DNA from: Chiloscyllium plagiosum
Taxonomy: Eukaryota
NCBI RefSeq assembly: GCF_004010195.1
Contig: NC_057759.1
Location: forward strand, 2,845,269-2,909,268
Direction: 5' to 3'
DNA: 64,000 nt
A program made the translations under genes and the position numbers. The notes beneath the pieces are model-generated. The model was given only the letters and a program-made list of their open reading frames with translations, had not been told where the DNA came from and did no database searches. How positions within the stretch are numbered: the first letter of the stretch is position 1; each line of letters begins with the position of its first letter. Of the stretch, positions 193 through 63,590 are shown in pieces.

Positions 193-531
193 ATCAATTC
201 TCGAAACCAACAATCAAAATGCTGTCAGATTCCGGTGTCAATTCAAATAGAAAGGATGTCGTGATTTCCTGCAAAGGTGACATTCGGCCCAGAGGAGGAA
301 TATTCTTCTTGTACAACAGTTGGAGGGAAGGTTCTCGACAGGATCGTCAGGATCGTCAGGTGACTGGTCTTAAAGATACCGCAGTCTTTACTATAAATGT
401 CCATGAGCAATATTCTGCTGGAGACTAAAGTTATTGGTATCATACAAAGGTTAATGGACGTGGCGTGCTTTCCCCGTCCAGCCAATCTGTTCAAGTCACA
501 GAGAAAAGAAAGGAGGATCACGCATCAAAAG
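193..531 (+). pseudogene. Decayed Ig-domain exon of an LRC-type (LILR/OSCAR/IGSF1-like) receptor
   Basis: Acceptor cag|AT at 193 and phase-1 donor AAAG|gtaatt at 531. Translation: DQFSKPTIKMLSDSGV..KDVVISCKG..IFFLYNS..TAVFTINV..SAGD*SYWY..SPSSQSVQVTE. TAA at 426-428 replaces the Y of G-x-Y-x-C, the second Cys reads Tyr (TAT), and there is a 9-bp duplication (caggatcgt)x2. Confidence 0.75.
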
Positions 532-1139
532 GTAATTACATGTTCATATATCTCAAATCGTCCTTCTTTTCATAGATGCATGCAGGCAGTGGAAACTGCT
601 AGTTTATTTTTTTATCCAATATGACATTTACAAAAAAAAAACTGCTTAGCGATTCTTGGTGCTTTTAGGTTTAAGCCAGTCACATGCTCTCGTTTTTACT
701 TATTGAAATTGGATCAAAGATCTGAGTTTGGGTTATATGCCCCTTCTCCTAACAGTCGTCTACGTGTATGAACTGGCGGACTTCATTTTGATGCACAAAC
801 AATGCCAAATAATGCTGCCATTGTTAACTAGGATATAAAGCCTGGGTTTTGATAGAGAACTGCGTAAGTATTTTCAAAAATGATGATTCGATCATTGGTG
901 TCACAATATGAAATAAAGGTTCATCAGTTTCTTTTGAGTTGGATAGAAAAATGGAAATTTGTGAATTTATCAGAGCAGGTGGAACCTCTACATGATTATC
1001 CAACAGAGGGGAAGAAATAATTTTTAAAAATAACAATTAGTGAATTAATCATGAAATGCCTTCATCATGTGTGTAGAGATTGTGAAATTGAATGATCCCC
1101 CTCGACACCTCCCCCCCCCCCCCCCCCCCCCTTACCTTC

Positions 1140-1450
1140 CCTTACTCATTGATCCCTCCAACAAGATGGGAAGGTTTCCTCCTGCCTACCCAAATAATCA
1201 TCCTCATCATTTTATACATCTCTGTCATATAACCCCCTCCCCGTCCCCTCAATGTCCTCCCCTCTAAGGAAAACAACCCCAGCATGTCCAAACTCTCTCC
1301 ATCACTGAAACTCTCCAGTCCCCAGGGCAACATTCTGGTAAATCTCCCTCTGCACCCTCTCCCAGTACTATCATATACCTCATTGAATGTGGATTCGAAA
1401 ACTGGACGCAACCATCCCGCTGTGTGACTCAACTAACGTTTGATACAGTT
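1140..1450 (-). mobile_element. CR1-type LINE 3' fragment
   Basis: Minus-strand translation RFTRMLP..GLESFS..LGLFSLE resembles the CR1 ORF2 C-terminus. Confidence 0.8.
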
Positions 1451-2835: not shown

Positions 2836-3165
2836 AACACGATAACACTACAATGGACTTTGATTCATCTCTGTCTCAGTCTCTTCGTGCCCATTGTGAT
2901 GGTGCTGAAAATGTGTTGCTGGAAAAGCGCAGCAGGTCAGGCAGCATCCAAGGAGCAGGAGAATCGATGTTTCGGGCATGAGCCCTTCTTCAGGAATCAT
3001 GCCCGAAACGTCGATTCTCCTGCTCCTTGGATGCTGCCTGACCTGCTGCGCTTTTCCAGCAACACATTTTCAGCTCTGACCTCTAGCATCTGCAGTCCTC
3101 ACTTTCTCCCATTGTGATGGTGGTCATCATTGTCGAACATTTTACAAACGGCTTGCCACTGACAG
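2836..3165 (+). pseudogene. Decayed transmembrane exon of an activating-type receptor, interrupted by a TE
   Basis: Acceptor ttctccttgcacag| and donor ACAG|gtaaaa. Removing the 2905-3122 insert and one frameshift base gives EHDNTT-WTLIHLCLSLFVPIVMVVIIVEHFTNGLPLT, resembling the DYT..NLIR..L.....E TM of LILRA/OSCAR-type receptors. Confidence 0.65.
2905..3107. mobile_element. Short hairpin (inverted-repeat) Penelope terminal fragment with 15-bp target duplication
   Basis: Arms ctgaaaatgtgttgctggaaaagcgcagcagg.../...cctgctgcgcttttccagcaacacattttcag. TSD cccattgtgatggtg at 2890-2904 and 3108-3122. The same sequence ends the Penelope element at 60490-60584. Confidence 0.85.
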
Positions 3166-4775: not shown

Positions 4776-6309
4776 GATCATTCTCTGCAGTTAAATGCAT
4801 AACGACACCCAGATCCTTCTGTACTGAAGCACTCTGAAGATTCTTTCTGTTTAGAGAATGTCACCGTTTCAATCTTCCAACCTCACATTTAACCACATCA
4901 AACTCTGCCTGCCAAATGTTGGCCAATTCACCATTCACACCCCTCCTCAAGTAAGGGAATCAAACTTGTATACCAGAGGAGCTCTAGTGTTTGTATGTCT
5001 GGTCAAGTTCAGGTTAAAGCTGAGGAAATCCCTGTGCTTTGGTTAATGGAATAAAATCGGCACTGGTAATGTCAAGGGGTAATGGTTACATTGTCACTAA
5101 TCAGAAATGGCCTTTTTATTTGTTTATTAAATAAGTAACTGATCCCATGCATGCTGAAGTTTGGAAGTAAATAAGGAGTACCCTTTAGTTGGCAACACAT
5201 GTCCTCACCTTCCAGCTGTTATGGGTGGCTCCAGTGGTCAATTATTTTCGACCAGGCTGCTCTCTTCATTAAACGTCCTACTTCCTATTTTACTCCTGAC
5301 TGTCCATTCACCCTTTCCCTCGCAGGCATATTCTTTTCTCTACAGGCCTCAAGGTAAAGGTAGGGATGACACTTTAGAACTGAGATGACGTGACATCGCG
5401 TCAGCCTGAAGGGGTGAGGATGAATCTGGGGAACTCATTGCTGCAGAGAACTGTGGAGACCAAGTCAATGAGCGTCTTGAAGACAGAGATGGGAACATTC
5501 CCGATTGATCAGGGGATTGAGATGAATGAGGAATAGGCAAGAGAAAGGTATCTCGACCTCAATCAGCTGTGATTGAATGGTAGAGCATAATCGATGCGCT
5601 GAATGTGTTAATTCCACTACGTCCTCATGTTTCCTTCCCCAAAATAAATGGCTGTATACTGAATTTGCATATTTCAGGCATGCTTATTTGTCTTTCATTT
5701 CAAGATCATCCCGTTCTTTGAACTAACTACTCTGTGTGCACAATTAGATGGGCGCATAACCTATGGTTAATTCAGAAGATACTTTCACAATATTTGCAGG
5801 ATGTCTACAAGCTAACATCTTAACATGCATTCCATGTTATTCTGGCAATACATAACTCCTTTGTTAACCCTCCACAGGGGAGAAAAAGGATCTGACAAAA
5901 CACACTGTTCGCCTCTCCACAACAGGGCTATGATGTTCGATGTGGGAATCCACTCGCTTGTTGTTTCCAATGTGCCTTCCGAAGGTGGGTTACAACGTGT
6001 GCTTCCTGTGCTCCCTGCCAATTATTCCACAACTTTGCTTTATCCAAAGCTGGTCCCCCTCTCTCCCCCGTACACATTCATGAGCCTGTGAAGCTTCTCG
6101 TCCAATCCTGGGGTGTCACGAGGCCCATCGGCCCATTGAATCTGTACTGCCGAATGCTATTATAAAGCTACAACAGTCCCACTGCTCATCACATTAGGAA
6201 TGGACAATCAGGAATGGATAAATGTTTTCTTTGCAAGAAAAAAGCAGTTCAACGATAACATTGGTTTTAGTTACACAGGATTCTAGTACCAGCTCGAGCG
6301 AAGAATTAC

Positions 6310-9220: not shown

Positions 9221-9645
9221 NNNNNNNNNNNNNNNNNNNNNNNNNNNNNNNNNNNNNNNNNNNNNNNNNNNNNNNNNNNNNNNNNNNNNNNNNNNNNNNN
9301 NNNNNNNNNNNNNNNNNNNNNNNNNNNNNNNNNNNNNNNNNNNNNNNNNNNNNNNNNNNNNNNNNNNNNNNNNNNNNNNNNNNNNNNNNNNNNNNNNNNN
9401 NNNNNNNNNNNNNNNNNNNNNNNNNNNNNNNNNNNNNNNNNNNNNNNNNNNNNNNNNNNNNNNNNNNNNNNNNNNNNNNNNNNNNNNNNNNNNNNNNNNN
9501 NNNNNNNNNNNNNNNNNNNNNNNNNNNNNNNNNNNNNNNNNNNNNNNNNNNNNNNNNNNNNNNNNNNNNNNNNNNNNNNNNNNNNNNNNNNNNNNNNNNN
9601 NNNNNNNNNNNNNNNNNNNNNNNNNNNNNNNNNNNNNNNNNNNNN
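9221..9645. other. Assembly gap (425 N)
   Basis: Run of N. Confidence 1.
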
Positions 9646-9649
9646 GTTT

Positions 9650-10270: not shown

Positions 10271-10497
10271 CTGTCCAGACTCAATGTCAAGTTCAAAAAT
10301 GTTAAGTCCTGAGCACTTCCTCCATGTGTCCTTATTCCAGTCCCCACACCTCATGGTCAGAAGAATTGTCACTGGACCCAAATCATTAACTCTGCTTTCT
10401 GTCCAAAAATGTAGCCTGACCTGTTGTGTTTCTCCACCAATTTTTGATTTTGTTGCGGATTCAGAGCATCTTTGTCTTTTTTTCTAATTTTAAAACT

Positions 10498-13266: not shown

Positions 13267-13766
13267 NNNNNNNNNNNNNNNNNNNNNNNNNNNNNNNNNN
13301 NNNNNNNNNNNNNNNNNNNNNNNNNNNNNNNNNNNNNNNNNNNNNNNNNNNNNNNNNNNNNNNNNNNNNNNNNNNNNNNNNNNNNNNNNNNNNNNNNNNN
13401 NNNNNNNNNNNNNNNNNNNNNNNNNNNNNNNNNNNNNNNNNNNNNNNNNNNNNNNNNNNNNNNNNNNNNNNNNNNNNNNNNNNNNNNNNNNNNNNNNNNN
13501 NNNNNNNNNNNNNNNNNNNNNNNNNNNNNNNNNNNNNNNNNNNNNNNNNNNNNNNNNNNNNNNNNNNNNNNNNNNNNNNNNNNNNNNNNNNNNNNNNNNN
13601 NNNNNNNNNNNNNNNNNNNNNNNNNNNNNNNNNNNNNNNNNNNNNNNNNNNNNNNNNNNNNNNNNNNNNNNNNNNNNNNNNNNNNNNNNNNNNNNNNNNN
13701 NNNNNNNNNNNNNNNNNNNNNNNNNNNNNNNNNNNNNNNNNNNNNNNNNNNNNNNNNNNNNNNNNN
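13267..13766. other. Assembly gap (500 N)
   Basis: Run of N. Confidence 1.
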
Positions 13767-35586: not shown

Positions 35587-36086
35587 NNNNNNNNNNNNNN
35601 NNNNNNNNNNNNNNNNNNNNNNNNNNNNNNNNNNNNNNNNNNNNNNNNNNNNNNNNNNNNNNNNNNNNNNNNNNNNNNNNNNNNNNNNNNNNNNNNNNNN
35701 NNNNNNNNNNNNNNNNNNNNNNNNNNNNNNNNNNNNNNNNNNNNNNNNNNNNNNNNNNNNNNNNNNNNNNNNNNNNNNNNNNNNNNNNNNNNNNNNNNNN
35801 NNNNNNNNNNNNNNNNNNNNNNNNNNNNNNNNNNNNNNNNNNNNNNNNNNNNNNNNNNNNNNNNNNNNNNNNNNNNNNNNNNNNNNNNNNNNNNNNNNNN
35901 NNNNNNNNNNNNNNNNNNNNNNNNNNNNNNNNNNNNNNNNNNNNNNNNNNNNNNNNNNNNNNNNNNNNNNNNNNNNNNNNNNNNNNNNNNNNNNNNNNNN
36001 NNNNNNNNNNNNNNNNNNNNNNNNNNNNNNNNNNNNNNNNNNNNNNNNNNNNNNNNNNNNNNNNNNNNNNNNNNNNNNNNNNNNNN
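35587..36086. other. Assembly gap (500 N)
   Basis: Run of N. Confidence 1.
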
Positions 36087-39807: not shown

Positions 39808-39838
39808 ATGTTGCAGATCTCCGTGCTTCTGATCCTCT
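39808..39838 (+). CDS. FCRL-like exon 1 (leader S1, MLQISVLLIL)
   Basis: ATG plus hydrophobic codons, 31 nt, donor T|gtaagt. Confidence 0.8.
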
Positions 39839-45800: not shown

Positions 45801-48800
45801 AAATACTATATTTGGAGGAGCAAGGATTCTGTCTTTTATAAAAATGGCAAGAAGATCCATGCAGTGTGGTTCCCAGGACGTGAATCATCGTATAGCACTA
45901 AAGTAAACAGCACCAATGACAGTGGATGGTACAGTTGTAAAATTGGTGGGTCGGAATCGCGAAATGTTAGTGTTCAGGTTCGAGGTACGTCCTTGATGTT
46001 ACAATCTGTGGTAGACAATGTGCATATTTCTCTCAATTGCTAATTTAAAGACAGGAGACATTCTGAATTAGCCAGTATAGAAGCGGCCCTTTGGTTCATC
46101 ATGTCTGTGCTGCCAATGGTACACCAAACCTACTTTCCCGCAATGTCTTGAAAATTATGACCGTTCAAGTGCTGGTCGATTTACTTTTTAAAGGTTGCAT
46201 GTTTTCCTGTCTCAATTGCCTTTCGAGGCAGTGCATTCCAGATCCTCAATACCCTCTGGGTGAAACATTCCTCAAATCCCCCTTAAACCTCCTGCCTTTC
46301 ACTTGAAACTGATGCCTTTCTTGTTGCTGATGCTTCAACTAATGGGAACAGCTGCTTCGTACCCACCTTGTCCATAATCCTGCACAACTCTGTCAGGTCC
46401 CCCCTCAGCTTTGTCTGTTCCAGAGAAAATAACCCAAGCTCATTGGTTCTTCATGCAACATTACCCACCACGCCCACCCGCCTTTGAGAGAAGCCATTCC
46501 ACCTCATCTCTGCTTTGAATATATCCCCAGACCCTTCTCCTGAAGCAGCGACGTCTTGTTCCAGATTGTCCCATACGACGAAACATGCTGTGCCCATCTC
46601 TTTTGTTAATCCTCCCTTTAACATCGTAAGAGTAAAGTCACCACAGTCCCACTCTTCCATCCGTGAGAGAGGGGACTGGGTGGTGGTCTAATCTGAGGGG
46701 TACAACGCCGCAGTTGAGGGAAGAGATGGAGATGTAGAATCCTCCGTGGTCACCTCAGCTGGTGTTGGAATTGAATCCATACCATGGACACCATCTGCAA
46801 CTCAGACCAGCCATCCAGCCGACTGAGCTCGACACCAAGCAAATATCATACTCTGAGCTCTGAACTTGCTCAATCTCTCCTCATAAGGCAACATCGTATC
46901 TCTGGTATAATCTGGGAAAGTTTTAATATGTTGACATAATTCATGTCAATGGTCTGAATATATCGTTGCCAAATAGAGTCATGGAATCATGCAACACGGA
47001 AACAGGCCTTTCTGCCGAACTCATCCCTGCCAATCAGGTTTCCTAAGCTGAATGAGTCCCAATTGCATTGGACCAAATTCCTCTAAAGATTTTCCGCCAT
47101 ATGCCTGTCCAATTCATTTTGTTAAATATTGTAATTGTATCCTAGTCTACCACTTTCTGTGGCAGCTCTTTCCATACACACCGCACCCTCTGTATCAAAA
47201 CATTGCCGTTCATTTCCCTTTTAAATCATTCCCCTCGCACATTAAATCCTAACCCCTCCATGTTTCAGACTCACCGATGCTATGGAAAAGACAATGGCTA
47301 TTCATCATATCTATGCATTTCATGATTTTATAAACTTGGATAAGGTCATCCCGAATCTCTGACACTTCAGTGAAAGAAGTCCCAGCCTCACCTTTGGGTC
47401 TCAGTTTCATTCTTGTATATTTTGTTTCTGATACCTTTCCAGTTTAATAACATCTTCCTAATAATAAGGCGACCAGAATTGCACACACAACTTCAAAGGT
47501 GACCTCAAATACATCCTGTACATTCGGAACATGATGTCCCAACTCATGTACTCAATGGCCTGAGCAATGCAGGCAAGCTTGCCTAAAGCGGTCTTTGCCA
47601 CTGTCTATCAAGGAATTATGCACCGCCAACACTCAGTCTCTCTGCTCAACAAGAATACCCAGGGTCCTACCATTCACTGTATATGTCCTGCTCTTGTTTG
47701 TTTCATGAACAGGCATTTTAACCTGGCAGTTAACCAAATTACACTCCATATGGCTGTTGGGCCAATTGATCAAGATTACGTTATTGTCTAAGTTTATGTT
47801 CCTCACGGTCTACAGCCATTCCATCCTTTTTTTTTCAAAAGGCAACCCACTCTTCCTGGGTCTGAACCAGTCAATGGATTGGACTTCCACCATGTTTGTG
47901 GAAGACATGGAAATAGTTCAGAAGGCAATTGATGAGTATGACACAAAGTGGCTGCAATGGGATACAGATGAGTTATAAGGAAATGAGCATAAACCTGGCA
48001 GATGCATGATAATGGGGGGAAATGTGTGATTTTGCGATTTGGCAGGAAGAACAGAGGAGCTCATGGAACATGAACCGGGGTGGTGGGAGGGGGGATGTTT
48101 GCTAAGACTTTACAATACGCAAATCAGACAAGAGGGGAATACTGTGAATATTCTGGAGCCCTGCATCTGAAGGAATGTAGACTGGGCATTGGAGACTGTA
48201 CAGAGGAAGTTCATACAGCTAATCCCTCTTATGGAGGGACTATTTGTTAATGGAAAGGCGGAGTGGTTTGGGCCTGTCCTCAGTGGAGTCTGGAAGAATG
48301 AGAGATTTATTGAAGATTCTTAGAGTGAGTTGACAGGAGTTGACAGAGAGACATGGTTTCCCGCTGAGTGGGAGAGTCTGGGAACTGAGGGGCATTGTCT
48401 CAGATTAATAGGAGGCGGGGTTGGTGACCTCCCATTGAAGTCGGAGATGAGATGGAACTTCTTCTCTCTGAAGGGAGTAAATCTGTGGAATTCTTTTGAG
48501 CAGAGGGCTTTCCTGGATGGGTTGTTGAGTATATTCAAGACTGAGAGGCAGAGATTTTAAATCAGGGCGATGACGTGGAACAAAAAGCAAGAAAGTGGAC
48601 TTGAGGATGATCGCATCAGGCATGATCTCATTGAATGATGGAGCAGACTCAATGAGTTGAATGCTCTTCTTTTGTTCCAACATCTTATCCTTTCGCTTTG
48701 TGATCAGAACAGTAGATTAACGAGTCCCAATTGTGTGTTACATTCCAGAACGCTTTGCCAAGCCCTTGCTGAGGGTGGAACCGGCGCCTGAAGTATTCGA

Positions 48801-51800
48801 GGGCCTCCCGGTCACGCTGACGTGCACTGTCCGGGAGGCAAGGACCTCCGTCCACTTTCACTACTCATTTTACAGAGACAGCGCCGGCCTAGAGGCCGTG
48901 CCTGGTCATGACTTCATGTACACTATCAACGCAGCGACTGTAAACGTTTCTGGGAATTATGCCTGTGAAGCAATCGAGACGGTTCACAGTCTGAGGAAGA
49001 GGAGTGACAGCATTTACATTTCCATTAAACGTAACTATGTGTCATTATCCCCAGCGCAAATTAAAGGCCCTTCGACCCATCGAGTCAGAAACAGCCACCT
49101 CACTATTATCTAATCCCTATTTTCCCAGCACGTGGTACCAGAGCCTTGGCCTCATGAGTGCACATCCAAACACTCTTCAATGTGTTGGGGGTTTCTGCCT
49201 CTCCTACCCTAACAGGCAGTAAGTTCCAGATACTCTGAGTGAACATGCGTTCCCTCTCATTCCTTCTAAACCATCTGTCCCTGACCTTCAATCGATGTCC
49301 CCTCCCTCCACCAATTGGGAAAAGTTTCCTCCTATATACCCTATCTACACCCCTCATCATTTTATACATCTCCATCACGACCTCCACCCGGACTCAATTT
49401 CCTCTGCGCTAAGGAAAACAATCCCAGTCTATCCAGTCTCTCTCCATCCTGAAGCTCTACAGCTCCAAGGCAACATCCTGGTAAATCACCTTCTGCACTC
49501 TCTCCCAGTGCTATCCTGTCCCTCCTAGAATGTGGATTCCAGAACCGGGTAAAATACTCTCGCCGCGGTTGTATTTATTTATTCCAAATGCGATCACGAT
49601 CATCCCCAAATCTGACCTCGAGTTAGCACGATGCTGACATTCTTGATTGACATTGAAGGATTGTTAGGAATCCCCCGCACAGGTCCCGCCTCGCGATTTT
49701 CTTGCTCTTGTGCTGACCACAGAGCTTACTCAAGTCCAAACATTCTACAGGCTCAAACAGAAACATGTCCTTCTGCTTTTCAGAGGCGTTCGCTGTCCCT
49801 ATATTGATCATGCATCCTGAGGAACAGCTGTTTGATGGCCAAAGGGTTAAACTGGTGTGCTGGGTTGAAGCGAACCCCTCCCAAGCTTCCTTGCGGTTCA
49901 GCTTTTACAGAAATGGGCTCCTTCTCCAGTCTCCATCTGACCTCAGTGATTACATCTCTGAGTCAGCTCGTCCGGCAGACTCGGGGACTTACCATTGTGA
50001 AGTCACAGACGGGAAGCTGTGGAAACGCAGTAATCAGCTTTATTTATCCATCAGGCGTAAGTATCATTTATCATTGTCCGTTTCTTAACTGTTACAGAAC
50101 TCAGAAAAAAGACAATTTATCATCACTCCCCACATCTCACAGACATATATTGGAGATCTAGAGACAAAGAGCACAGGGTGTTGGGTGGACCGTTTAGGAC
50201 TGCGATGGGGAGAAATGTTTCAAACAGAGAGTGAGGAGGCTGTGGAATTCACTGCCCGGAAAATTATGGAAACATGTAGATGGCACTAGGCCATCCGATC
50301 CTTCCAGTTTGTTGTGTCCATTCACTAGAATTGTGGCTGACCTTCCAACTCAGTCCCCTGTCCACTTGCTCTCTTCCTTTATGCCCTAAGAATTCTATTA
50401 ACCTCCTTGAATAACATTCACTGTCTCCGTTCCGACTATTTTCTGTGTCACAGAATTTCACAGGCTCCTAACTATCTTGGTGAAGGCATTCGTCCCCATC
50501 TCAGTCCTATTCCATCTCCTTTAGACTGTAACCCCTCGATGTCTCTCAACATTCTTCTTGTGCTGGCCGTGTCTAATTAGTAAATTTGCAGATATCATGA
50601 AATTCGGTGGTGCTGTGGACAGTAAGGAGGATTGTCAAAGAATATCGATCAGCCTGAAAGTTGGGCACAGAAATCGTGGATGGATTTTAATCCAGGCTAA
50701 TGTGAGCTGATGCATTTTTGGGAGGTGAAATGCGAGAGTAAAATATACAATAAATGACAGGACCCTTGGGAGCATTGCTATACAGAGGGATCTTGGGGTG
50801 CAAGTCCATAGTTCCCTGAAAGTGGCAACACAAATGGATAACATGGTAAAGAAGCCATATGGCATGCTTCCTGTCACCAGTCGGTGAAATATGTATAAAC
50901 GTTGGTAAGTGATATTGCAGCCGTGTAAGACTTCATTTCTACCACATTTGGAGGATATGTGCAGCTTTGTTGCCCACACTATAGCAAAGATGTGGAGGCA
51001 TTCGAGAGGATGCAAAACAGTTTTCCCTGGATGTTGCCTGCATTGGAGTTTGTAAGCCATGAGGAGAGGTTGGCCAAACTTGGATTGTTTTCACGAAGGC
51101 ATTGGAGGCTGGAGGCGGACCTGATTGGGGTATACAGAATTATGAGAGGCATGGACAGGAAGGATAGCCAGTGTCTTGCTTCCAGGTTGGAAATGTCAAA
51201 TACTAGGGTGGGGAGCACAGGTGTAAGGTGAGAGGAGGAGAGTTAAAATGAGATATGAGAGGAAAGGTTAACTTAGAGTACAACAGGATCTTGATTAGAT
51301 GGGACAACGGGCTGAGGAGTGGCAGATGGAGTGTAACTTAGATTAATGTGAGGTGCTGCACTTTAGAAAAGCAAATCAAGGCAGAATCTGTGCACCTAAT
51401 GTCCTGGGGAGTGTTGCTGAACAAAGTGACCTTGGAGTGCTGATTCACATTTCCTTTAAAGTGAAGTTGCAGGTAGATAAGATAGTGAAGAAGGTGGTTA
51501 GATTGCTTTCTGTTATTGTTTGGAGAATTGAGTACCTGCGTTGGGAGGTCATGTCATGGCTGTTCAGCACATAAGTTAGGCAACTTCTGGAATAATGTGT
51601 GCAAATCTGGTTTCCCTTCAAAAGCAAGGATATTCGGAAACTTGAAAGGGTTTAGGAAAAAGATATTGCAAGTGTTGGAGGATTTGAGCTTTCGGGAAAG
51701 ACTGATTAGGCTGGGATTGTTTTCCATGGAGCATTGGAGGCTGAGAGGTGACCTTATAGAGGTTTATAAAATAATGAGGCTCATAGATAGGGTAAATCGG

Positions 51801-54800
51801 CAAAGTCTTTGGGTGGGTGGGTCCAAAACTGGAGGGCATTGGTTTAGGTGAGAGTGGACTAATTTAAAAGGGACCTAAGGAGTAACGGTTTTCAACAAAG
51901 GATGGTGCGTCAATGGAATGAGCTTCCAAAGGAAGTGATGGAGGCTGGTAAGATTACAACATTTAAAACGCATCTGTTTGGGTGTATGAATTGGAAGGGT
52001 TTAGAGATATAAGGGTCAACTGCTGGCAAATGGGACTAGATTAATTTATGATGTCTTGTCAGCACAGACGAGTTGGACTGAAGGTGCACTACATCTCTGT
52101 GGTTCTATGATTCTAAACAGTGAGTGTTAGGTGCCTGGCACGCACTGCCAGAACAGTTGGTAGAAACAAATACGATAGCAATGTTTACGAAGCATAAAGA
52201 CAGACACTTGAATATGTAGGGTGTAGACGGATACGGAGAGCATGCAGACAGATGGAATTCGGATAGAATGACATCACAGTCAGTGGTCTGAAGGGCCGGT
52301 CCCTGTGCTGTACTGTTCTATGTCCTAAGAATTCAGAGAATCGGCTCATATTCTGGGCTCAAATCCCACCATAGCAGATGGGAGAATCTGAGTTCAATTC
52401 CAAATGTTGATTGCAGCCCGACAACTGTCAACTGCCCTCTGTGTAATTAGGGATGAGTAATAAATACTGGACTACCCAGGGACACCCACATCCAACCAAT
52501 GAACAAAATAAATGTGTATGATTGTGATGATCTTCATAGTTGAGTTTGCAATTAACTCCGCCAAATACAATGATCTATCTTTTGTCTATGATTCCAGGAA
52601 TTCCAGTGTCAAAACCGGAACTAACAATTCATCCTGGAAAGTATCTAATCGAAGGAGACACAGGATCCTTAATCTGTTCGGTCTCCAATGGTTCTCTGCC
52701 GATTTATTACCAATTCTACAACAGCTCAAACGTGGAACTGTACAGGGAGCTTTCCAACAGCACTGAGCTTGTTTACAACATTGGAGCTATCAATAGAAGG
52801 GACGAAGGGCTTTACCATTGCTCAGTGAGAAATGAGGTGACAGGCCCTCAGCACAGTGAAGACATAGAGATCACAGTGATAGGTGAGTTCACAAGGACTC
52901 TCTCCCAAAGAGTAACTGAACCATCAGTTCAGGGAATACTGCTGCTGAGACCAACTCAAAGCTGGTGCTTCGTCGTTGAACATCGCACCTTAGGCTAAAG
53001 CAACTGAGAGAGAGAGGGAGCTGCAGATCAGAGTCAAAAGGTATGGTGCAGGAAAAGCACAGCTGGTTATGCAGCATTAGTGCAAGAGGGAAGTCGACGT
53101 TTCGGGCATAAGCTTTTCCTCAGGAATGTGATGAAGCGCTAATGCTCGAAACATCAACAATGCTTTTCCAACATCACAGTTTTCGAAACAAAAGCGGCAC
53201 AGCCCAATGTCCCTGTAGTTGGTCCAATATCCTTCTTAACCACTCCTATCCATGCACTTGGCCAAGCGACTTTTAAATGATGTTGATGTCCCCTCTCCAA
53301 CCATTTCCACGGCAGCTCATTCCATATGCGTTACATCCAATGTGTAAAAGAGTTGTCCTTCAGGTTTCCCTTTTAATCTTTTCCATCGAACCTTAAACTA
53401 TTGTCCTCTAGTCCTCGACTCCACAACGCTGGGAAACAGACTGAGTGCATTCACCCTAATTTTGCCTCTCATAATCTGATACACTTCAAAGTTTGTGAGA
53501 AGATTTGTAGCTCGGGTGCTCGTTGTTGTGGTTCTGTTCGCCGAGCTGGAAGTTTTTGTTGCAAACGTTTCGTCCCCTGGCTAGGCGACATCATCAGTGC
53601 TTGGGAGCCTCCTGCGAAGCGCTTCATTGATGTTTCCTCCGGAGAATGCACACTCAGGAACAATGGACTGACAGAAGAGACACAACAAACAGTGAGACAA
53701 ACTGTCGTACCTATGATAATAAGGAAAAGACAAACACATAACCTCAACACCAAGGAGAGGGAAGCACTGAAATCACTAAGAAACGATAAGGATGGTGGGG
53801 AGCTGGTTATTCATTCATTCCAGAGAGATGATGTCGGGAGGTATCACTGTGCAGCAATCAACAATGGAACCAACACTATTTTTAATGTGACCAGCGACTA
53901 CATCGAATTCACACTGCGAGGTAACAGTGGCACTCAGATTGAACATAGACAGACCATAGAGAAAGACCATTCACTCCATCCGGTCTGTGCCAATCAGAAA
54001 CTCTTAACCATCTCAGGGGAGGTGATAACTGGGTGGTATTGATCCAATAGGCTATTGGTCCAAATTGGTGGTGTCTGGTGTTCCTGATATCCCGCCCATA
54101 CCAGATGGTGGAATTTGAATGCGATAGAAAATCTGGAATTGGAAGCCCCATGGAGAGGGCAGCATACAGAGGAGATTTACCAGTATGTTCCTTGGATTTT
54201 AGCGATGAAGAGAGGGAGGCTGGATAATCTTGTAATATTTTCTATGGAAGAGTAAATGCTGAGAGGGGAACCCAATAGAGATGTGTAAGATTGTGAGGGT
54301 AAGGGACTAGGCAAAGAGGAAACAGGTGTTCTCCATATTCAAAGGGTCAGTAACTAGGGCTGGGGTGGAGAGGTCATTTTAAAGTGAAGGATGGGAGGAT
54401 TAAAGGGAGATTTGAGGATTATTTCACCGAAAGGTTGGTGGGAGTTGGAATATACTGCCTGGCAAGGAAACTTCCAACATTTACAAATTACTTGGATCGG
54501 CACTTGAAATGTCATAATATTGAAGGCTGTGTGTGTGTGTGTGTGTGTGTGTGTGGGGTGGGGGTGGGGTTAGTGTGGGAAAGTGGGATGGGTGTAGGCT
54601 GTTCAATGGGGCAATTTCTGCCACACTGCGAGACTCTCGATACCTCCATGGAGGCATGGAGTTACATATCTGTGGGTATTGATCAGTTTGATGTTAACTG
54701 TGTACATCACACAGAGATGATGTGAGAAAACTTCCTGGTGAATTTGTTAACGTGAGCTGAATATTCTTGTTGGATTCCAGCTCGGAGTTATTCCAAGGAA

Positions 54801-57800
54801 ATCGTGATGTCATTCCTCCCAGTTCTGCTGTTGGCTGGCCTGATTGTGTTGGGGTGCTACATCCACCGGAGGACCACAGGTCTGTAACATCCCATGGGAA
54901 TGAGATTTGTTCCACATCCCCACACTATGATACTGCCATCCCTGCCACAATGTAACCTTACAGCTGGACGGGGGGAGCCGGGGGAAGGAGGTGGTGGGTC
55001 GGGAACTGGGGTAGGCCGTGTTCCAGACAGTCGGGAGGGAGAGTACTCACAAAGTTAGCCTGCTAGATCGGGTAACTGTGACCCACCAACCCCCGCCACA
55101 CTGTGTCAGAGCACCTGAGAGAGGAGGAGAGACGTAAGACCATGACAGTCGGGAACAGGAGGAGCACATTCAGCCCCTAAGGATCTTGCTCTGTTTTTTA
55201 ATGAAATACACCTGTATTAACTTCACTTTCCTGCCTCACCCTCTTTAAACTATGACTTGTTAAAACATTGTCTATCTCTTCCGTAAATTAATTCAGTGTT
55301 CACTGGCAGGCTGACCTAACCCTACACGTAAATTGACCCATAGCCCGAAGCTTAAACATCAACCTAGCTAAACCTAACCATAAACTCAAACACGTCTCTA
55401 ACACAAACTCTGACCTTAAACGTAAACGTGACTCAATCATAAAATTAACCCAAACTCTAACTTTGGCCCTCATGAAACAGCTAACGCTAATCCTAACTCT
55501 AACTCTAGCCCTCGCCCTAACCCTGAACCTAACCCTGACTCTAACACTATTCTTAGTCCAAACCATAAACCTAACCATAACTCTAACCTTAAACTTAACT
55601 CTTAACATAACTCTAACCGTGACCCTCAACCAAACACCCTACACTGACCTTAATGCATTAAGACAGGCTTGACAATTATCATCTTTGATGTGTACGTTCC
55701 CTGTTTCTGACTGAGATAACACTTTGGCAGCTCCTGTCTGTGACCCTCAACCAAACGCCCTACACTAACCTTAACCGTTGTCAGAATCCTAGCCCTCACC
55801 CTAGCCCTACCCATCACCCTAAACCTATGCAGCTGTTTAATGTTAAGCTGTTTAATGCATTAAGACAGATTTGACAATTATCATCTTTGATGTGTACGTT
55901 CCCTGTTTCTGACTGAGATAACACTTTGGCAGCTCCTGTCTGTGACAGTGCAGAGCTACTGTAAATGATGCTGAGAATATTCTCTCTTTCCCTGCAGGCA
56001 ATTCGTCAACTGTGTCACAGCCCAGGAAGTAAGTGACTGAAACTACAGTTTTTATATTTGCCATTGTTTATCCCGATTCCTCTCAATCAGGGAAAGACAA
56101 CATAAATGAAGAAGCCATAGAGGAGCTTCGATATGACTGCATCTTTTTGACATGCATCTTATCGACAATCAAGGAAACCATACTCCAGGAAGGTCCCAGA
56201 CAGTTTACACGGGGATAATGCTATCACTGGCTAGGACTGCATTTGTTGTCCATCCATAAATACCCCAGAGGGCAGTTACATTTAACCAGGGTATGCAGTC
56301 GCATGTAGGCCCAGTCCAGATATGGACGGGGGATTACCTTCCCCAAAGGACATTAGTGAAAACAAGATGGAGAACTGGGCAGCGTCTTGAGGGTGAGAAA
56401 ACTCCATGTTCGGATGGAAGCCAGAGACATGGGGCCAGGCAATACCAGCTCTCGCTGGGTTTTGTATTTTGTTTGATAGCTTTGCCGTTTTGTTGAAGTT
56501 GAACATGGTTTTGAAAGCATTGTATTCGAAATGATGACTTCCTTTTGTTTCCCCTTACTACTAGAACTGGATCGCAGCCTTCTGGTGAAGGGCCAGCAGC
56601 CAGCAATCTGGAGTATGCGGTAGTTGGAGCAGCACACACTGCTGGTGAGTGCCATTAACTCGGTGTGATTAAAGAGCCCCACACTGTGACAGTGCACTGT
56701 AACCTGTTAGAAATTCTGGATAAACATCCGAGCCATCAGATGGCCGATTTCCATGGGGCTGCGGTGGCTGAAGGGGTGCAGAAAGTAATGAACAGGAGGA
56801 GGCTATTCAGCCCTTCTAGCTTGCCCGCCTTTCATTATAATCATGGCTGACCATTCAACTCAACCTCCGGTTCCCACAGAAACTAGGAATAGGCCATTTA
56901 GTCTTTCTAGCCTGCCCTGCCAGTTTGAAGGGAACGCGGCTGAACATCCAACTCAGTCCCTGGTTCCCCGCTTTCTCTGCCATACCCTTCAATCCCTTTA
57001 ACCCCCAACGTTGCCAAATGCTTCTTGTTTGGGATGTGCAAAATGATGACGAGCTTAGAAAGGGTAAACAGGAAGAAATATTTCCTTCTCGATGGAAGGA
57101 CCAATGGGGGCCAAGAAAAAGAAATGAACAAAAGGAAAGTACAGGAAAGGAACAGGCCCTTTGATCCTCCAAGCCTGTGCTGATCATCATGTCCTAACCA
57201 AACTCAAAACATAAACACAGTTCATGGCTTTAGTTGGTCTTTATCCCACTATGCCCTCTCTGTTCATGTGACCTCCCAGATACCTGTTAAACGTGCCTGC
57301 TTCCACCATCACTTCTGATAATGCTTTTCAGGTTCCAACCACACACTGCATGAAAAGCTTCCCTCGCACATCTCCCTTAACTTACACACCCCCACACCCC
57401 CCGACCTTGAATCTGTGCCCCATTGTAAATTAAAACATCAACCCTGGGAAAAAGCCTCTGACAATCTACCCTATGTGCCTCTCATAATTTTGGAGGCTTC
57501 CATCAGGTCTCCCCTCAGCTGCTGTCTTTCCAATGAACACAATCATAGTGTTTTAACCTTTTCTCCTGGCCAATGTCTTTGAGAGCTGGCAACATCCTAG
57601 TGAACCTTCTCTACACTCTCTCTAAAGCTTTCATGTCCTCTGGTAGTGTGGCGAACAAAGCAGTACACAATGCTCCAGTTGTGACCTAACAAGGGTTTTA
57701 TGTAGCTGCAAGATAACTTGCCAACTCTTGTACTCCTTGCCCTGTCTAATGAATTCACGCATGCCATATGCCTTCTTCATCACCTTGGCCACCATAGATT

Positions 57801-58574: not shown

Positions 58575-58638
<64 letters not shown>

Positions 58639-61600
58639 TCATTTAATCTATCCATTCATTTAATCTATCCATCCATTTAATCTATGAATCATTTAACCCT
58701 TTATAGTGAGGCTGTCCGTTTGATGTGTGTTTCTTGTGGCACTTCATTTCTTTGTAGAAAACACCACTGCGGATCTGGTTTATTCAGAGGTCACCATCAA
58801 GAAGAGAAAAGAGCCCGGTAAAGATCTCTTAGCTTCAGTACTACGATCGTGTGAGATGGGATGGGAGGGGTGGGTGTCGGTGGTGGGGGAGGGTGGAATC
58901 ATTGAAGCTCCAACAATAGCACGATCCCAGTTACTGGGGACGTGTGTGTGTGTGTGAGAGAGAGAGAAAGGGAATGAGTGAAAGAGAGAGAGACCAGTTC
59001 CAAACAGGGAAATGTAGTAGCGTGGTGCTTGCAGTGACGGGAGTGTGAGGGATCGGAGCATGAGCCAAAAAAAATCTCCAGCACTTACGAAGTTTGGTCA
59101 GTAAACCAGCCAATCAGAAGCACGTTCTAATCTGATCTGCGCTGTCCCTTTCTTCTCCGACAAATGGTGCAGAGACAAAGAATTTGGAGATGATTTGTAT
59201 GTTGTCAGTGATCCAGAACAAACTGACAGAGCAATTAGAGAGGGATTCTGTGGGTGAGAATGGCAGTGCGACACGTACATTATTCTTCTCTCGGGCAGAT
59301 ACAGACCAGAAAACTAAGAATTGCAGATGCTGCAGATCTGAAACAAATTCGGACATTTCTGGAGAAACTCAGCAGGTCGGGCAGCATCTGCGGAGAGAGA
59401 GAAAGCAAGTCCTGTTTTTGTTACATAATACTCAAGGCCAATTTGCCAAATAATGCCACTCAATGTTTTGAGATCACCTTTTGCCCCCACCTTTTCCTCC
59501 GCTACATCGATGACTGTATCGGCGCTGCTTCGAGCTCCCACGAGGAGGTTGAACAGTTCATCCACTTTACCAACACCTTCCACCCCGACCTCAAATTCAC
59601 CTGGACCGTCTCAGACTCCTCCCTCCCCTTCCTAGACCTATCCATTTCTATCTCGGGTGACCGAATCGACACGGACATTTACTATAAACCGACCGACTCC
59701 CACAGCTACCTAGACTACACCTCCTCTAACCCTGCCCCCTGTAAAAACGCCATCCCATATTCCCAATTCCTTCGTCTCCGCCGCATCTGCTCCCAGGAGG
59801 ACCAGTTCCAAAACCGTACAACCCAGATGACCTCCTTCTTCAAGGACCGTTTCCCCCCAGACATGGTCGACGATGTCTTCCACCGCATCTCTTCCACTTC
59901 CCGCTCCTCCGCCCTTGAGCCCCGCCCCTCCAAACCCCACCAGGACAGAACCCCACTGGTCCACACCTACCACCCCACCAATCTCCATGTACAGCGCATC
60001 ACCCGCCGTCACTTCCGCCACCTCCAAACAGAAATCTCCATGTACAGCGCATCATCCGCCGTCACTTCCGCCACCCCCAAACAGACCCCAGCACCAAGGA
60101 TATATTTCCCTCCCCTCCCCTACCAGCTTTCCGTAGAGACCACTCCCTCCGCGACTCCCCTGTCAGCTCCACACCCCCCACCGACCCAACCACCACTCCC
60201 GGCACCTTCCCTTGCAACCGCAGGAGGTGCAACACTTGCGCCCACACCTCCCCCCTCACTTCTCTCCAAGGCCCCAAGGGAAACTTCCATATCCGCCACA
60301 GATTCACCTGCACCTCCACCCACATCATCTACTGCATCCGCTGCAGCCGGTGTGGCCTCCTCTATATTGGGGAGACAGGCCGCCTACTTGCAGAGCGATT
60401 CAGAGAGCACCTCTGGGCCAACCGGACGAACCAACCCAACCACCCTGTAGCACAGCATTTCAACTCCCCCTCCCACTCCACCGAGGAACACATTCCTGAA
60501 GAAGGGCTTATGCCCGAAACGTCGATTCTCCTGTTCCTTGGATGCTGCCTGACCTGCTGCGCTTTTCCAGCAACACATTTTCAGCAATGTTTTAAGATAG
60601 CCGAGAAAATAAAAGCATCATCAATCTTATTGTTGTTCAGAAAGTTGAGCTTACAATTATCATGCTGATGCTTCTCAACACCTATAAGGTGTTGAAACAA
60701 AATTGGCCTTATGCACAATGAAATCTGTCTCTCAGAACACTGTCAGGGCATGAGCAGTAAAAGTCATGTTCTTCCAGGCCATTATCCTGTCCTCTCATTC
60801 GACAGCAAGAGAGAGAGAGAGAGAGAGAAGTGGGAGGATCATCAAAAGTAATTTGCCGGTCATTGTGCGTCCTGAGAGAGGAGCGGTTCAGAAGGAGAGT
60901 CCCTCAGGGTAACTTCAGCTGGTGTGGGAATTGTACCCATGTTGGTGGCAAAGGTTGGCATATAATGCTTTGCAAAAACTAGCCATGCAGCCAGCTGAAT
61001 CACACTGAACTAGCAGCATACAGCAGTTAAAACCCAAATGTATGGAACCTGAATAGTTCACTCCTGTCTTTTATGAACAAGTACAGAGCAAGTGATGCAA
61101 AGGCTGACGAGATTAAGACGGCCTGTCGAAGATGTTGCACTGACAAGCATCGTTAAAACTGATACACCGTCTTAATGGTCAGAAAACCAATTGCTGGATT
61201 TCAACAGAGCCGATTTTTCCAAATGCGAAATTCTGAAATGTCTGGATTGATTGAGAGGGGCACAATTCAGAAAGTGTTGTACTGATTTTTTTTTAAATGA
61301 CAAAAGCACCGCTACACTCTCACAAGATGCAGCTCCGTCTTTAGTGTTGATCAGCCCTCAATGGGTCCAGATCGAATCACTAATGCATGCAAAGAGTTCC
61401 TTCTCATTGTTTTATGTTTTATTTTCAGGCAAAAGAATTGCTTTCTCCTCCGATTTGGAAAAGGTTTGTAACATTTTATGTCTAAATAGACCACGGCTAT
61501 TGCCACAGAGCGTGCAGATAGATTTATACCTTGCATCCACAGTGTAAAACATGAACTGTGGATTATTATCTGACTAATTGAAGAATACGCCATAAAATGT

Positions 61601-63590
61601 AGGGGCAGGAGTAGGTCATTCAGCCCTTCCAACCTAATCTCCCCGTTCAATAGCATTATCCAACTCAGTCTCCTGATCTCCATTTTCTCCCTTTAGCCCT
61701 TCAGAACTCTATCCAATTCCTTCCTGAACAACATTCCGTGTTCTGGCCCTGACTGCTTTCTGTGGCAGAGGATTCCACAGGCTCCCACTCTCTCTTCGTG
61801 AAAGCATTATGCCCCATCTCAGTCCTACTCCATCTCCTTCAGACTGTGACGTCCTGGTTCTGTACACCCTCCTGTTCATCAGGAACCTCCTTCCTGTGTT
61901 TACCCTGTTTAGTCCTCTTACAATTCTAATAGATTCCCCGTCATTCTTTGAAACTGCTGTGAATATTATCATAATTAATACAGTCTCTCCCCATCCGTCT
62001 GTTCTACCATCCTAGGAATCACATGGGGAAATCTTCCCTGCAGTCCCTCCATAGTCAGAACATTCTTCCTCAGATAAGGAGACCCCAAACTGCGCACACA
62101 GTACTCCAGAATGTGGTCTCACCCTGTGCAAGTGCAGCAAGACAGCGCTGCTCCTGGTCTCGAATCCTCTCACTATGAAGGCCAACATTCCATTTACCTC
62201 ATTTACCGCCTGTTGCTTCTGCAATGTTCACTTGCAGTGACTGGTGTATGAGGGGCACCTCACCTCACCCTTTCCCAAGCCATCACTATTCGGATTATAT
62301 TTCACCACCCTGTTTTTGCTCTCAGTTGGGGAATCTCACGCTGATCCACAATAACCTGAATCTGTCGTGCATTGGTCCACTCATTCAACTTGTCCAAATC
62401 ACACTGATGCATCTCTGCATTCTCCTTCTCAGCTCCCCATCCCTCCCAGCTTTGTGTCTGCCTTTAAACACAATGGAAAATAACCGGCAACACTTTCTCA
62501 ATGGAATAGATTACTCACTGTTTCGCATTCTACTTCCAATGCCCAGAGACAAGTGAGTTTCAAAATTGGGGCAATATTAGTGTTGATGTTCCAGTTCCTT
62601 TTCGTACTTTATTACAACATCAGTGACATTGACGTTAAATACTTGCCAGTCCGTTGTCATTTGCACCCAATTGGTAGCAGCAGTGTGTACCATCCACAAG
62701 ATGCACTGTAGAAAGTCAGCAAACATCCTCAGACATCACCTTCCAAATTTACAGACAATTCCACCTAGAAGGACAAGGACAGCAGATGGGAAGACCAACC
62801 CTTGTGAGCTCCTCTCTGAGCCACTCAACATCCTTTGGAAATACATCAGCCGTTCTTTCAGTGTCACTGCGTGAAAATGCTGGAATTCCCTCCCTAAGTG
62901 AATTGTGAGTTAACCTTCAGAAGTTGGGCGTACAGTGGCTCAGGAGAGCAACTGGAGACAGGGCAACAAACACTGGGCCCAACCACGATGCTGCCGTCCC
63001 ATAAGTAAATGGAAACAAAATCAAAACTGCCTCCGTCTATTCTGTTCCAAAGAAAGCAAGCCGTGCTTATCCAGCCTCACTTCATCACTGAAATGCTCCA
63101 TCCCAGACAACATCCTGGTGAATCTCCTCTGCACCCCCCCAGTGTATCACTTCTGAGAGTGCAGAGGTTGGAATAGCACACAATGGGCTCACCAAAGTCC
63201 TGTCACACTCCAACATCACCTTCCTGCTTATATATCCATATGGCACACCACAGGAGCAGGCGGGACTTGAACCCTGCCCTTCTGGCTCAGAGGTAGGGAC
63301 AGTATCACTTTGCCGCCAGATTTCTAGCTTGCAGGCCTTGAACTGCTTGATGGTGATTCCCATTTTCCTCTGAGACTCACTGCTACTTGTACTCCAACTG
63401 ATCTCTCCTTCCCCTTCAGCTTCTTGCTCCCACTCGATTCCAATTTCATTCCAATATCATTCCATGGCAGGATTCGAAGACTGACCCCGATGATTATGGT
63501 ATCACATACGCCACACTGAACCTCAGTGAGCCCTCGCAGGATGAAGACGGAGGGGACAGAAATGTTTACATGAATATTCCGCGGAAGTAA
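39808..63590 (+). CDS. Fc receptor-like inhibitory Ig-superfamily receptor gene (12 intact coding exons, 527 aa, plus one broken Ig exon)
   Basis: All junctions are GT-AG and phase-compatible. Exon lengths 31+30+258+282+273+285+99+31+80+60+35+120 = 1584 nt. Architecture: leader, Ig x4, TM, ITIM tail. Confidence 0.9.
41420..41449 (+). CDS. FCRL-like exon 2 (leader mini-exon S2, LNLALCWLTQ)
   Basis: cccttctttattccag| 30 nt |gtaagg, phase 1-1. Confidence 0.8.
44200..44520 (-). mobile_element. HE1-type V-SINE (intronic)
   Basis: Reverse complement of the 34928 copy. Confidence 0.85.
45727..45984 (+). CDS. FCRL-like Ig domain exon 1
   Basis: DRNVELHVDP..LEGERLKLNC..FYKNGK..DSGWYSC..SRNVSVQVR; tttag| and |gtacgt. 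Confidence 0.92.
48749..49030 (+). CDS. FCRL-like Ig domain exon 2
   Basis: ERFAKPLLRV..EGLPVTLTC..YSFYRD..SGNYACEA..KRS..ISIK; ccag| and |gtaact. Confidence 0.95.
49784..50056 (+). CDS. FCRL-like Ig domain exon 3
   Basis: QAFAVPIL..DGQRVKLVC..LRFSFYRNG..DSGTYHCEV..KRSNQLYLSIR; ttttcag| and |gtaagt. Confidence 0.95.
50575..52110 (+). mobile_element. Two adjacent CR1 3' fragments (intronic)
   Basis: Repeated RLGLFS.E.WRL.GDLI.VY.IMR blocks at ~51070 and ~51710. Confidence 0.85.
52598..52882 (+). CDS. FCRL-like Ig domain exon 4
   Basis: RIPVSKPELTI..EGDTGSLICSVSNGSLPIYYQFY..DEGLYHCSVRN..SEDIEITVI; ccag| and |gtgagt. Confidence 0.95.
53488..53790. mobile_element. Penelope fragment (inverted terminal repeat plus ORF piece) abutting the broken Ig exon
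   Basis: Minus-strand hammerhead core at 53561-53600 (gca CTGATGA..GAAACGTT tgc); plus-strand HNLNTKEREALKSLRNDK. Confidence 0.85.
53791..53920 (+). pseudogene. 3' half of FCRL-like Ig domain exon 5 (5' half and acceptor missing)
   Basis: DGGELVIHSFQRDDVGRYHCAAINN..SDYIEFTLR with intact phase-1 donor G|gtaaca; no first Cys upstream. Confidence 0.85.
54781..54879 (+). CDS. FCRL-like transmembrane exon
   Basis: ARSYSKEIVMSFLPVLLLAGLIVLGCYIHRRTT; ttccag| and |gtctgt; no charged residue in the TM. Confidence 0.9.
55310..55830 (+). repeat. Degenerate (CCCTAA)n-like hexamer tract
   Basis: ccctaa/ctctaa/acctaa variants in tandem. Confidence 0.8.
55998..56028 (+). CDS. FCRL-like cytoplasmic exon 1 (GNSSTVSQPR)
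   Basis: tctctttccctgcag| 31 nt |gtaagt, phase 1-2. Confidence 0.85.
56565..56644 (+). CDS. FCRL-like cytoplasmic exon 2, ITIM LEYAVV
   Basis: KTGSQPSGEGPAASNLEYAVVGAAHTA; ctag| and |gtgagt, phase 2-1. Confidence 0.87.
58575..58637 (+). repeat. (ATCT)n microsatellite
   Basis: About 15 tandem copies. Confidence 0.95.
58758..58817 (+). CDS. FCRL-like cytoplasmic exon 3, ITIM LVYSEV
   Basis: ENTTADLVYSEVTIKKRKEP; tttgtag| and |gtaaag, phase 1-1. Confidence 0.9.
59475..60584 (+). mobile_element. 5'-truncated, relatively young Penelope element (RT end + GIY-YIG), intronic
   Basis: FLRYIDDCIG..DIYYKPTDSHSYLDY..IPYSQFLRLRRIC. TSD caatgtttt(g/a)agat at 59461-59474 and 60585-60598. Internal ~53-bp duplication near 59980-60085. 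Confidence 0.93.
60491..60527 (+). ncRNA. Minimal hammerhead ribozyme core, sense to the host gene
   Basis: CTGAAGA (60496-60502), GGGC-TTAT-GCCC stem II, GAAACGTC. Confidence 0.65.
61429..61463 (+). CDS. FCRL-like cytoplasmic exon 4 (GKRIAFSSDLEK)
   Basis: ttttattttcag| 35 nt |gtttgt, phase 1-0; needed to put the last exon in frame. Confidence 0.8.
63471..63590 (+). CDS. FCRL-like last coding exon, ITIM ITYATL and terminal YMNI
   Basis: DSKTDPDDYGITYATLNLSEPSQDEDGGDRNVYMNIPRK*, phase 0, TAA at 63588-63590. Confidence 0.88.
   Translation, partial: DSKTDPDDYGITYATLNLSEPSQDEDGGDRNVYMNIPRK

Follow-up and report, generated by a model that had tools for sequence, protein, structure and literature searches.

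LRC-type and FCRL-type receptor families probably duplicate and decay side by side on one small shark chromosome

Introduction

The human FcR/FCRL genes (chromosome 1) and the genes of the leukocyte receptor complex (LRC, chromosome 19) are families on separate chromosomes. A question raised by a stretch of the genome of the shark Chiloscyllium plagiosum is whether two such families share one address there, and whether this address is ancient or the result of a later gathering on one microchromosome. The stretch, called the window here, comprises 64,000 nucleotides (positions 2845269-2909268) of contig NC_057759.1 (8,079,144 bases; hereafter C50). It carries a decayed gene with an LRC-type immunoglobulin (Ig) exon and, downstream, an FCRL-like gene with immunoreceptor tyrosine-based inhibitory motifs (ITIMs). 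We consider it probable that families of LRC type and FCRL type are interleaved on C50, where they duplicate and decay, and that the window holds a dead LRC-like copy and a damaged FCRL-like gene.

In earlier papers, cartilaginous fish are said to lack FCRL (PMC4016189, PMC5742104) and LRC-type genes (PMC4016189), both of which are dated to bony fish. When the LRC arose was described as unclear in 2019 (PMC6557307). No account of a shark LRC/FCRL cluster was found in the literature, although subscription papers and supplements could hold one, and a term search of the main text and one supplement of the elephant shark genome paper (PMC3964593) gave no match. Names such as FCRL5-like, LILRB3 or OSCAR are already attached to database models.

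Results

Two receptor families share one small chromosome

The genome was searched with the second Ig domain (D2) of the upstream gene and with an FCRL exon. The D2 protein search gave 14 matches, nine of them on C50 between 0.52 and 3.72 Mb; the FCRL exon search gave 29 matches, 21 of them on C50 from 1.0 to 7.1 Mb. FCRL-type exons of greater divergence were seen at 0.17-0.23 and 2.97 Mb. This concentration of both families on the same contig exceeds chance. Genes of the two types alternate over about 7 Mb of the 8-Mb contig, of which 1.14 Mb and further samples were inspected as sequence. Within the window, both genes are on the same strand and the FCRL-like gene starts 36.6 kb from base 3165, which agrees with the arrangement originally described, namely a decayed gene about 37 kb before an ITIM-bearing FCRL-like gene.

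The families duplicate and decay on this chromosome, and the birth-and-death turnover that had been proposed for the locus is borne out. By exon content, the nine D2 exons of C50 belong to two intact inhibitory genes (0.87 and 3.72 Mb) and to seven dead copies or remnants (two dead inhibitory copies, three dead activating-type copies including that of the window, and two remnants). About 20 kb around the upstream gene are duplicated at C50:1.74-1.76 Mb with ~89% identity, and this copy is dead as well. A further activating-type transmembrane (TM) exon of the upstream family lies at 3.945 Mb.

Proteins of both families were also found on contigs of equal size in Hemiscyllium (16,212,550), C. 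punctatum (50,004,209) and Stegostoma (15,641,076). These three and Rhincodon we take to be carpet sharks, and linkage outside C. plagiosum is inferred from equal-sized longest contigs in three of these four species. The linkage of the families is real on C50 and apparent elsewhere. It is very improbable that the two window genes are joined merely by scaffolding across N runs. All three N runs of the window do fall between them, two having a length of exactly 500, and local gene order and distance across these gaps may be wrong. However, a misjoin is an unlikely source of the linkage, because both families interleave at many places along C50 and share equal-sized contigs in the three other species. 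A foreign insert between the genes is likewise unlikely, since the paralogs closest to the segment between the second and third gaps also belong to C50 (87% at 2.73 Mb and 93% at 1.77 Mb), the latter adjoining the duplicate of the upstream gene. Protein records of C. plagiosum are identical (100%) to window exons.

The upstream gene is a pseudogene

The upstream gene of the window is a pseudogene of a two-Ig shark family, as seen from a stop, a lost cysteine, a frameshift and a 218-bp insert; each of its three main exons carries a lesion and none of them keeps an intact copy's reading frame. Its second Ig exon has an in-frame TAA at 426-428, and the second Cys of the domain has become Tyr. The TM exon has one extra base relative to the closest paralog, and a hairpin repeat that the paralog lacks is inserted in it, flanked by a 14-bp target-site duplication (2891-2904 and 3109-3122). 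The exons originally assigned to this gene (193-3165) stand, although its extent does not: a last exon encoding a short cytoplasmic tail without tyrosine follows at 5878-5933 (Table 1), and the first Ig exon, which is frameshifted, lies ~8.5 kb before the window (C50:2836701-2837060). The TM exon is of the activating type as predicted, with a polar residue that is His where sawshark and horn shark relatives show Arg. A 1.3-kb contig (C29317) is 96% identical to the dead Ig exon, with the same stop, and could be either the alternative allele or a recently made copy.

Activating and inhibitory forms pair within the upstream family

Database relatives of the upstream family occur in carpet, mackerel, horn, saw, cat, hound and sevengill sharks. 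They share a layout of a Cys-rich first domain (CxCxCP, common to all members), D2, and one of two ends: either the TM is uncharged and a VTYAVL-type tail follows, or the TM carries a polar residue and the tail is short. At the polar position, sawshark P0038 and P0124 and horn shark P0087 have Arg, and carpet sharks show His, Gln or Asn. Read against the published criterion for NxxR-type TMs (Arg, a DYT-like start and an acidic C-end; PMC6557307), the family mostly lacks Asn at -3. Six shark TMs resembled two reptile NxxR TMs beyond shuffled sequences (p < 0.05) in 11 of 12 comparisons, and the other two tetrapod TMs in only 2 of 12. An NxxR TM alone is no marker of LRC ancestry, because Xenopus FCRL and SLAM receptors use one too (PMC2413239, PMC6557307).

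Judging from their predicted proteins, this family includes activating and inhibitory forms that have an ectodomain in common, the pattern of paired receptors. Sawshark P0034 and P0038 have near-identical ectodomains, one with an ITIM end and the other with an Arg-TM end, and P0001 relates in the same way to P0039 and P0033. An intact activating-type gene was found on the unplaced contig C98545. In the Stegostoma model P0029, an uncharged TM exon and an activating-type TM exon stand in tandem, so that it may represent one gene giving both forms or a fused model. One TM exon of a zeta/gamma-family adaptor with the conserved Asp was found in the genome (C12:49769721-49769807), a candidate for either CD3-zeta or FcR-gamma. 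A second LRC-type subfamily was seen at C50:7711233-7716116 (minus strand), with at least four tandem open Ig exons in an IGSF1/A1BG-like layout.

The two genes of the window had been proposed as an activating/inhibitory pair. They are not one, because they have no common ectodomain type and the upstream gene is dead.

The downstream gene is of FCRL type

The FCRL-like gene spans 39808 to 63590, and two of its six Ig exons (the first and the sixth) are dead, damage that the original prediction had not mentioned when it assigned the gene, rightly on the present comparisons, to the FCRL type. Against the structure database, it matched FCRL5 at 2.5e-62, with the best KIR at 1.6e-7 and PECAM1 at 2.7e-4, and its intact paralog P0012 is collinear with FCRL5 over residues 65-460. 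An FCRL leader is split over two exons including a mini-exon, and the leader of the window gene is split in the same way (31-nt and 30-nt exons). An exon-like stretch at 39670-39720 was considered as a frameshifted leader and rejected; it differs from the leader of the database model P0010, and the true leader is intact.

When the 12 other exons are joined at AG/GT sites, they give an open frame for a predicted protein of 527 aa that has four Ig domains and an uncharged TM and bears the motifs LEYAVV, LVYSEV, ITYATL and VYMNI. The paralog model P0013 has the same junction between the fifth Ig exon and the TM exon as this form. The damaged gene likely still yields an inhibitory or a secreted product, as far as its reading frames tell. 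Among 18 shark FCRL-type models retrieved, a TM is present in 12, and none of these 12 is charged. About 20 kb downstream, at C50:2928879-2937518 (minus strand), the 3' half of this gene recurs as an inverted, headless copy with 84-88% identity and an intact sixth Ig exon.

Profile and fold searches place the upstream family with LRC-type receptors

A single-exon search of PDB gave no informative match. Profiles were built of D2 from six sequences and of the whole protein from 18. The results showed that the D2 profile matched PIR-B first (4.5e-5), titin second and OSCAR third (0.011) among 54 PDB matches, the sole Fc receptor being ranked last (9.7). The whole-protein profile placed PIR-B first (2.9e-20), with LILRB2 and KIR3DL1 at ~2e-8. 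A profile of the first domain (D1) gave weak matches to FcgammaRIII/FcepsilonRI as well, and the D1 fold is nearest to LAIR1/LILRB4.

The predicted structure of sawshark P0034, an intact member, has a mean pLDDT (predicted local distance difference test) of 69. With this model, LRC-type proteins filled the first 14 rows in Foldseek (OSCAR, 9.9e-13) and the first 46 of 50 rows in VIA, where FcgammaRIIa first appeared at rank 47 (Z 12.9); the modelled D1 aligned on LAIR1 with Z 14.6 and a root-mean-square deviation (rmsd) of 1.8 over 93 residues. A model of D2 only, from an intact paralog, was run in VIA over 48,161 chains and gave CHIR-AB1 at the top (Z 9.9, rmsd 2.9, 86 aligned), with LILRB4, KIR3DL1, PirB and LAIR1 among those that followed, so that LRC-type proteins made up six of the first seven rows. 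Atlas neighbours of the family were HIDE1, FcalphaR, KIR, TARM1 and OSCAR.

Against 1.84 billion proteins, the D2 profile gave 560 matches. Of the best 150, 30 were identified by name, and 23 of these come from cartilaginous fish, a ray and a chimaera among them. Many cartilaginous-fish matches (P0045, P0084, P0040 and others) combine LRC-type Ig domains with SRCR domains and carry names such as DMBT1-like or M130-like. In a domain tree of 57 rows, the window exon lies inside the D2 clade of the family (99/93); tetrapod LRC-type domains are close to it (94/83, unstarred), and shark FCRL domains (62/87) stand apart. Overall, the predicted domains and folds identify the upstream family as LRC-type by every ranked profile and fold search, which is not a proof by phylogeny. 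The original assignment of the upstream domain is upheld by these rankings, in which PIR-B, OSCAR, LILR, NKp46, LAIR1 and CHIR come first; the domain phylogeny proposed as its check has weak support at depth and does not reject a grouping with FCRL. Neither of the two results that were to overturn the original reading, an upstream domain grouped with FCRL or an unrelated family and a scaffold misjoined across the gaps, was obtained outright.

Counter-evidence and a single-superfamily alternative

A number of observations weigh against the reading of interleaved LRC-type and FCRL-type families. As for class, FCRL5 was second for the whole-family profile (6.1e-17) by a small margin. The D2-only model lacks its first nine residues; its best Foldseek match, CHIR-AB1, was weak (5e-3), with none under 0.001, and PECAM-1 ranked second in VIA (Z 8.4). 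The tetrapod LRC rows of the domain tree were retrieved with the D2 profile itself, the tree holds no tetrapod FCRL or PECAM1 rows, and its deep nodes are weakly supported; an approximately unbiased (AU) test, run without two long-branch rows, failed to reject a grouping of D2 with FCRL domains (p 0.116, 0.293). As for signalling, adaptor binding is uncertain in carpet sharks, since their TMs hold His, Gln or Asn rather than Arg. As for the cluster, the search for intact paralogs in the flanks suggested originally returned the inhibitory genes named above and no intact activating-type gene in the 1.14 Mb of C50 inspected, the C. punctatum match (P0039) of the activating gene on C98545 is on an 82-Mb contig rather than the cluster contig, and the contigs of the two families differ in size in Rhincodon. 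Finally, P0010, the database model of the FCRL-like gene, leaves out the first Ig exon and stops in the intron behind the fifth, before the TM.

Some of these points would also fit a different explanation, in which the upstream family is a shark offshoot of the FCRL/PECAM/HIDE1-type C2 group and the cluster is one superfamily rather than two linked families. The unusual Cys-rich first domain of all members, the rank of FCRL5, the AU test, a Pfam search that gave only one weak HIDE1-type match (0.013) and the use of an NxxR-type TM by Xenopus FCRL as well (PMC2413239) are all consistent with it. We nevertheless regard such an origin as quite improbable: LRC-type proteins come first in every ranked search, the other seven of the 30 named D2-profile matches, all of reptiles or primates, are IGSF1-, A1BG- or TARM1-like, and the domains of 143 new profile matches, a set biased by its retrieval, score almost wholly better on upstream-family than on shark FCRL profiles.

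Ancient shared address or later gathering

Under the reading of two interleaved families, their common chromosome may be old or secondary. In the first case, genes of FCRL type and LRC type would have been neighbours as early as the ancestor of jawed vertebrates, or prior to genome duplication, with one family later retained at human 1q23 and the other at 19q13. The interleaving over most of C50, the second multi-Ig LRC-type gene at 7.71 Mb, the contig sharing in three of four other carpet sharks and the spread of LRC-type domains over sharks, a ray and a chimaera point in this direction. The last exons of the inhibitory tails of the two families are also alike (score 38, shuffle p 0.0035), which shared Tyr motifs may explain. 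In earlier work, genome duplication has been proposed as the common source of the FcR and LRC loci (PMC4016189), and 1q23 and 19q13 have been termed paralogous (PMC4536121). On the other hand, co-location was observed in carpet sharks only, chicken has FCRL on chromosome 25 and CHIR on 31 (PMC4016189), no clear protein mixing FCRL- or FcR-type with LRC- or KIR-type domains was present among 182 classified, and marker searches assigned none of the genes framing the LRC or the 1q locus to C50, of which 1.14 Mb and further samples were read.

The LRC-framing genes include TTYH1, RPS9, CNOT3 and PRPF31 (PMC6557307). The genome search with the Prp31_C profile (PF09785) gave no match, Tweety (PF04906) gave two loci, on C21 and C24 and none on C50, and S4 (PF00163) gave one weak match, on C9 and likewise not on C50. 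The 1q marker DPM3 (PF08285) is on a small unplaced contig, not on C50. An L28e-family (PF01778) match on C42, which we take to be MAK16, was rejected as a 19q13 marker after translation.

In the second case, one family would have moved onto the chromosome of the other among sharks, or among carpet sharks in particular, and expanded there afterwards, as mobile immune genes on microchromosomes do. LRC-type exons are indeed scattered outside C50 (C12:2816655-2816966, C47:8935126-8939990, C99971 and C98545), and C50 has a mixed content with histone, zinc-finger and RCC1-repeat genes. Elsewhere, an OSCAR-like gene of the opossum lies on another chromosome (PMC6557307), ggFcR of the chicken on chromosome 20 (PMC4016189) and TILR of the turkey on chromosome 3 (PMC3601082). 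Against it, two distinct LRC-type subfamilies accompany FCRL on C50, which would take two moves or one old move. We hold the later co-location to be nearly an even prospect and the ancestral linkage to be somewhat less likely.

In the interval C50:2971209-2989968, two tail exons of the LRC-type family come after decayed and divergent FCRL-type Ig exons of the same strand. A TM exon that would link them was looked for there and not found, and a chimeric gene would look like two adjacent remnants. Together with the similar last exons, this interval offers weak hints of exon exchange between the families. A stronger version of the ancestral case, that C50 is a surviving copy of the leukocyte-receptor locus of ancestral jawed vertebrates, where the neighbouring families exchanged exons for tails and TMs until 1q23 and 19q13 came to keep one family each, seems to us rather unlikely; if true, sharks would hold both families and paired signalling from the base of the jawed vertebrates.

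Other features of the window and of C50

The coordinates of the window features are collected in Table 1. In addition, an exact two-copy 154-bp tandem repeat lies near the first gap (9963-10271), and introns of the FCRL-like gene contain a degenerate telomere-like hexamer tract (55481-55631) and a reverse-transcriptase-like frame (59239-60447). On C50, histone H3 and linker histone H1 genes are found near the start (70351-70800 and 102992-103738), and C2H2 zinc-finger arrays stand among the receptor genes (2769595-2789127 and 2953130-2954521). An open frame at 163950-164387 presumably resembles a retroviral envelope gene fragment. The distal end (7.887-8.071 Mb) carries a large multi-exon RCC1-repeat gene, presumably similar to HERC1, as a true neighbour or through a scaffold join.

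Table 1 Features of the window (window positions; strand; basis or remark).
Feature	Position	Strand	Basis or remark
Upstream pseudogene, Ig exon 2 (D2, LRC-type C2 domain)	193..531	+	AG/GT splice sites, 339 nt
Upstream pseudogene, activating-type TM exon	2836..3165	+	one extra base vs closest paralog, plus insertion
218-bp hairpin repeat inside upstream TM exon	2905..3122		with 14-bp target-site duplication
Upstream pseudogene, final exon, short tyrosine-free cytoplasmic tail	5878..5933	+	sequence comparison
N run 1 (425)	9221..9645		window sequence
N run 2 (500)	13267..13766		window sequence
N run 3 (500)	35587..36086		window sequence
FCRL-like gene, leader exon 1 (31 nt)	39808..39838	+	database model, sequence
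FCRL-like gene, leader mini-exon 2 (30 nt)	41420..41449	+	sequence
FCRL-like gene, Ig exon 1, dead through frameshift and stops	43600..43850, end approximate	+	skipped in P0010
FCRL-like gene, Ig exon 2, open	45727..45984	+	sequence
FCRL-like gene, Ig exon 3, open	48749..49030	+	sequence
FCRL-like gene, Ig exon 4, open	49784..50056	+	sequence
FCRL-like gene, Ig exon 5, open	52598..52882	+	sequence
FCRL-like gene, Ig exon 6 remnant, last 45 codons	53785..53920	+	5' part swapped for unrelated sequence
FCRL-like gene, uncharged TM exon	54781..54879	+	sequence
FCRL-like gene, cytoplasmic exon 1	55998..56028	+	sequence
FCRL-like gene, cytoplasmic exon 2, ITIM LEYAVV	56565..56644	+	spliced frame
FCRL-like gene, cytoplasmic exon 3, ITIM LVYSEV	58758..58817	+	spliced frame
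FCRL-like gene, cytoplasmic exon 4	61429..61463	+	spliced frame
FCRL-like gene, last exon, ITIM-like ITYATL, terminal VYMNI, stop	63471..63590	+	spliced frame

Discussion

In the mechanism that we propose, segmental duplication and decay would turn over both families along C50. By analogy with mammalian, bird and frog receptors, intact members of either family with an uncharged TM would brake leukocytes through SH2 phosphatases bound to their ITIMs, while intact activating LRC-like members may signal, as their counterparts do, through an adaptor of the FcR-gamma/CD3-zeta type carrying an immunoreceptor tyrosine-based activation motif (ITAM), by way of the Arg or His of the TM. The pairing of activating and inhibitory forms sits inside the LRC-like family rather than across the two window genes. 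The upstream gene of the window itself neither brakes nor activates leukocytes.

The intact shark members of both families push the origin of these families back to the jawed-vertebrate ancestor, and the dead LRC-type gene of the window adds little beyond its intact neighbours.

The upstream family is comparable to OSCAR, TARM1, FcalphaR and NKp46 and to the LILRA-LILRB and PIR-A-PIR-B pairs in having two C2-type Ig domains and, in database models, a split leader. It shares with mammalian LRC receptors the two kinds of ends (a basic TM with an acidic C-end, or an uncharged TM with an ITIM tail), and these receptors are its best fold and profile matches. Unlike them, it has a Cys-rich first domain and one clear ITIM in the inhibitory tail, its carpet-shark members replace Arg by His, Gln or Asn and mostly miss Asn at -3, and the marker searches found no framing gene on the cluster contig. 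The chicken CHIR cluster on microchromosome 31 is similar in its paired Ig receptors, birth-and-death evolution and microchromosomal location (PMC3601082), and CHIR-AB1 is the top fold match of the modelled shark D2; however, CHIR is a single family, and chicken FCRL genes are on chromosome 25 (PMC4016189), whereas C50 carries both families.

The FCRL-type genes resemble human FCRL5/FCRL3 and Xenopus XFL in their collinear multi-Ig ectodomain, split leader, uncharged TM and multiple ITIMs, and the domain shuffling among shark paralogs recalls that of FCRL/XFL. Activating NxxR-TM forms occur in XFL (PMC2413239), in contrast to the uniformly uncharged TMs of the shark models. Taken as a whole, the shark system is like the teleost LITRs, compared here by description, in bringing FcR-like and KIR-like domain types into one fish receptor system (PMC2413239); the two types are mixed in one protein in LITRs and are borne by separate genes in the shark.

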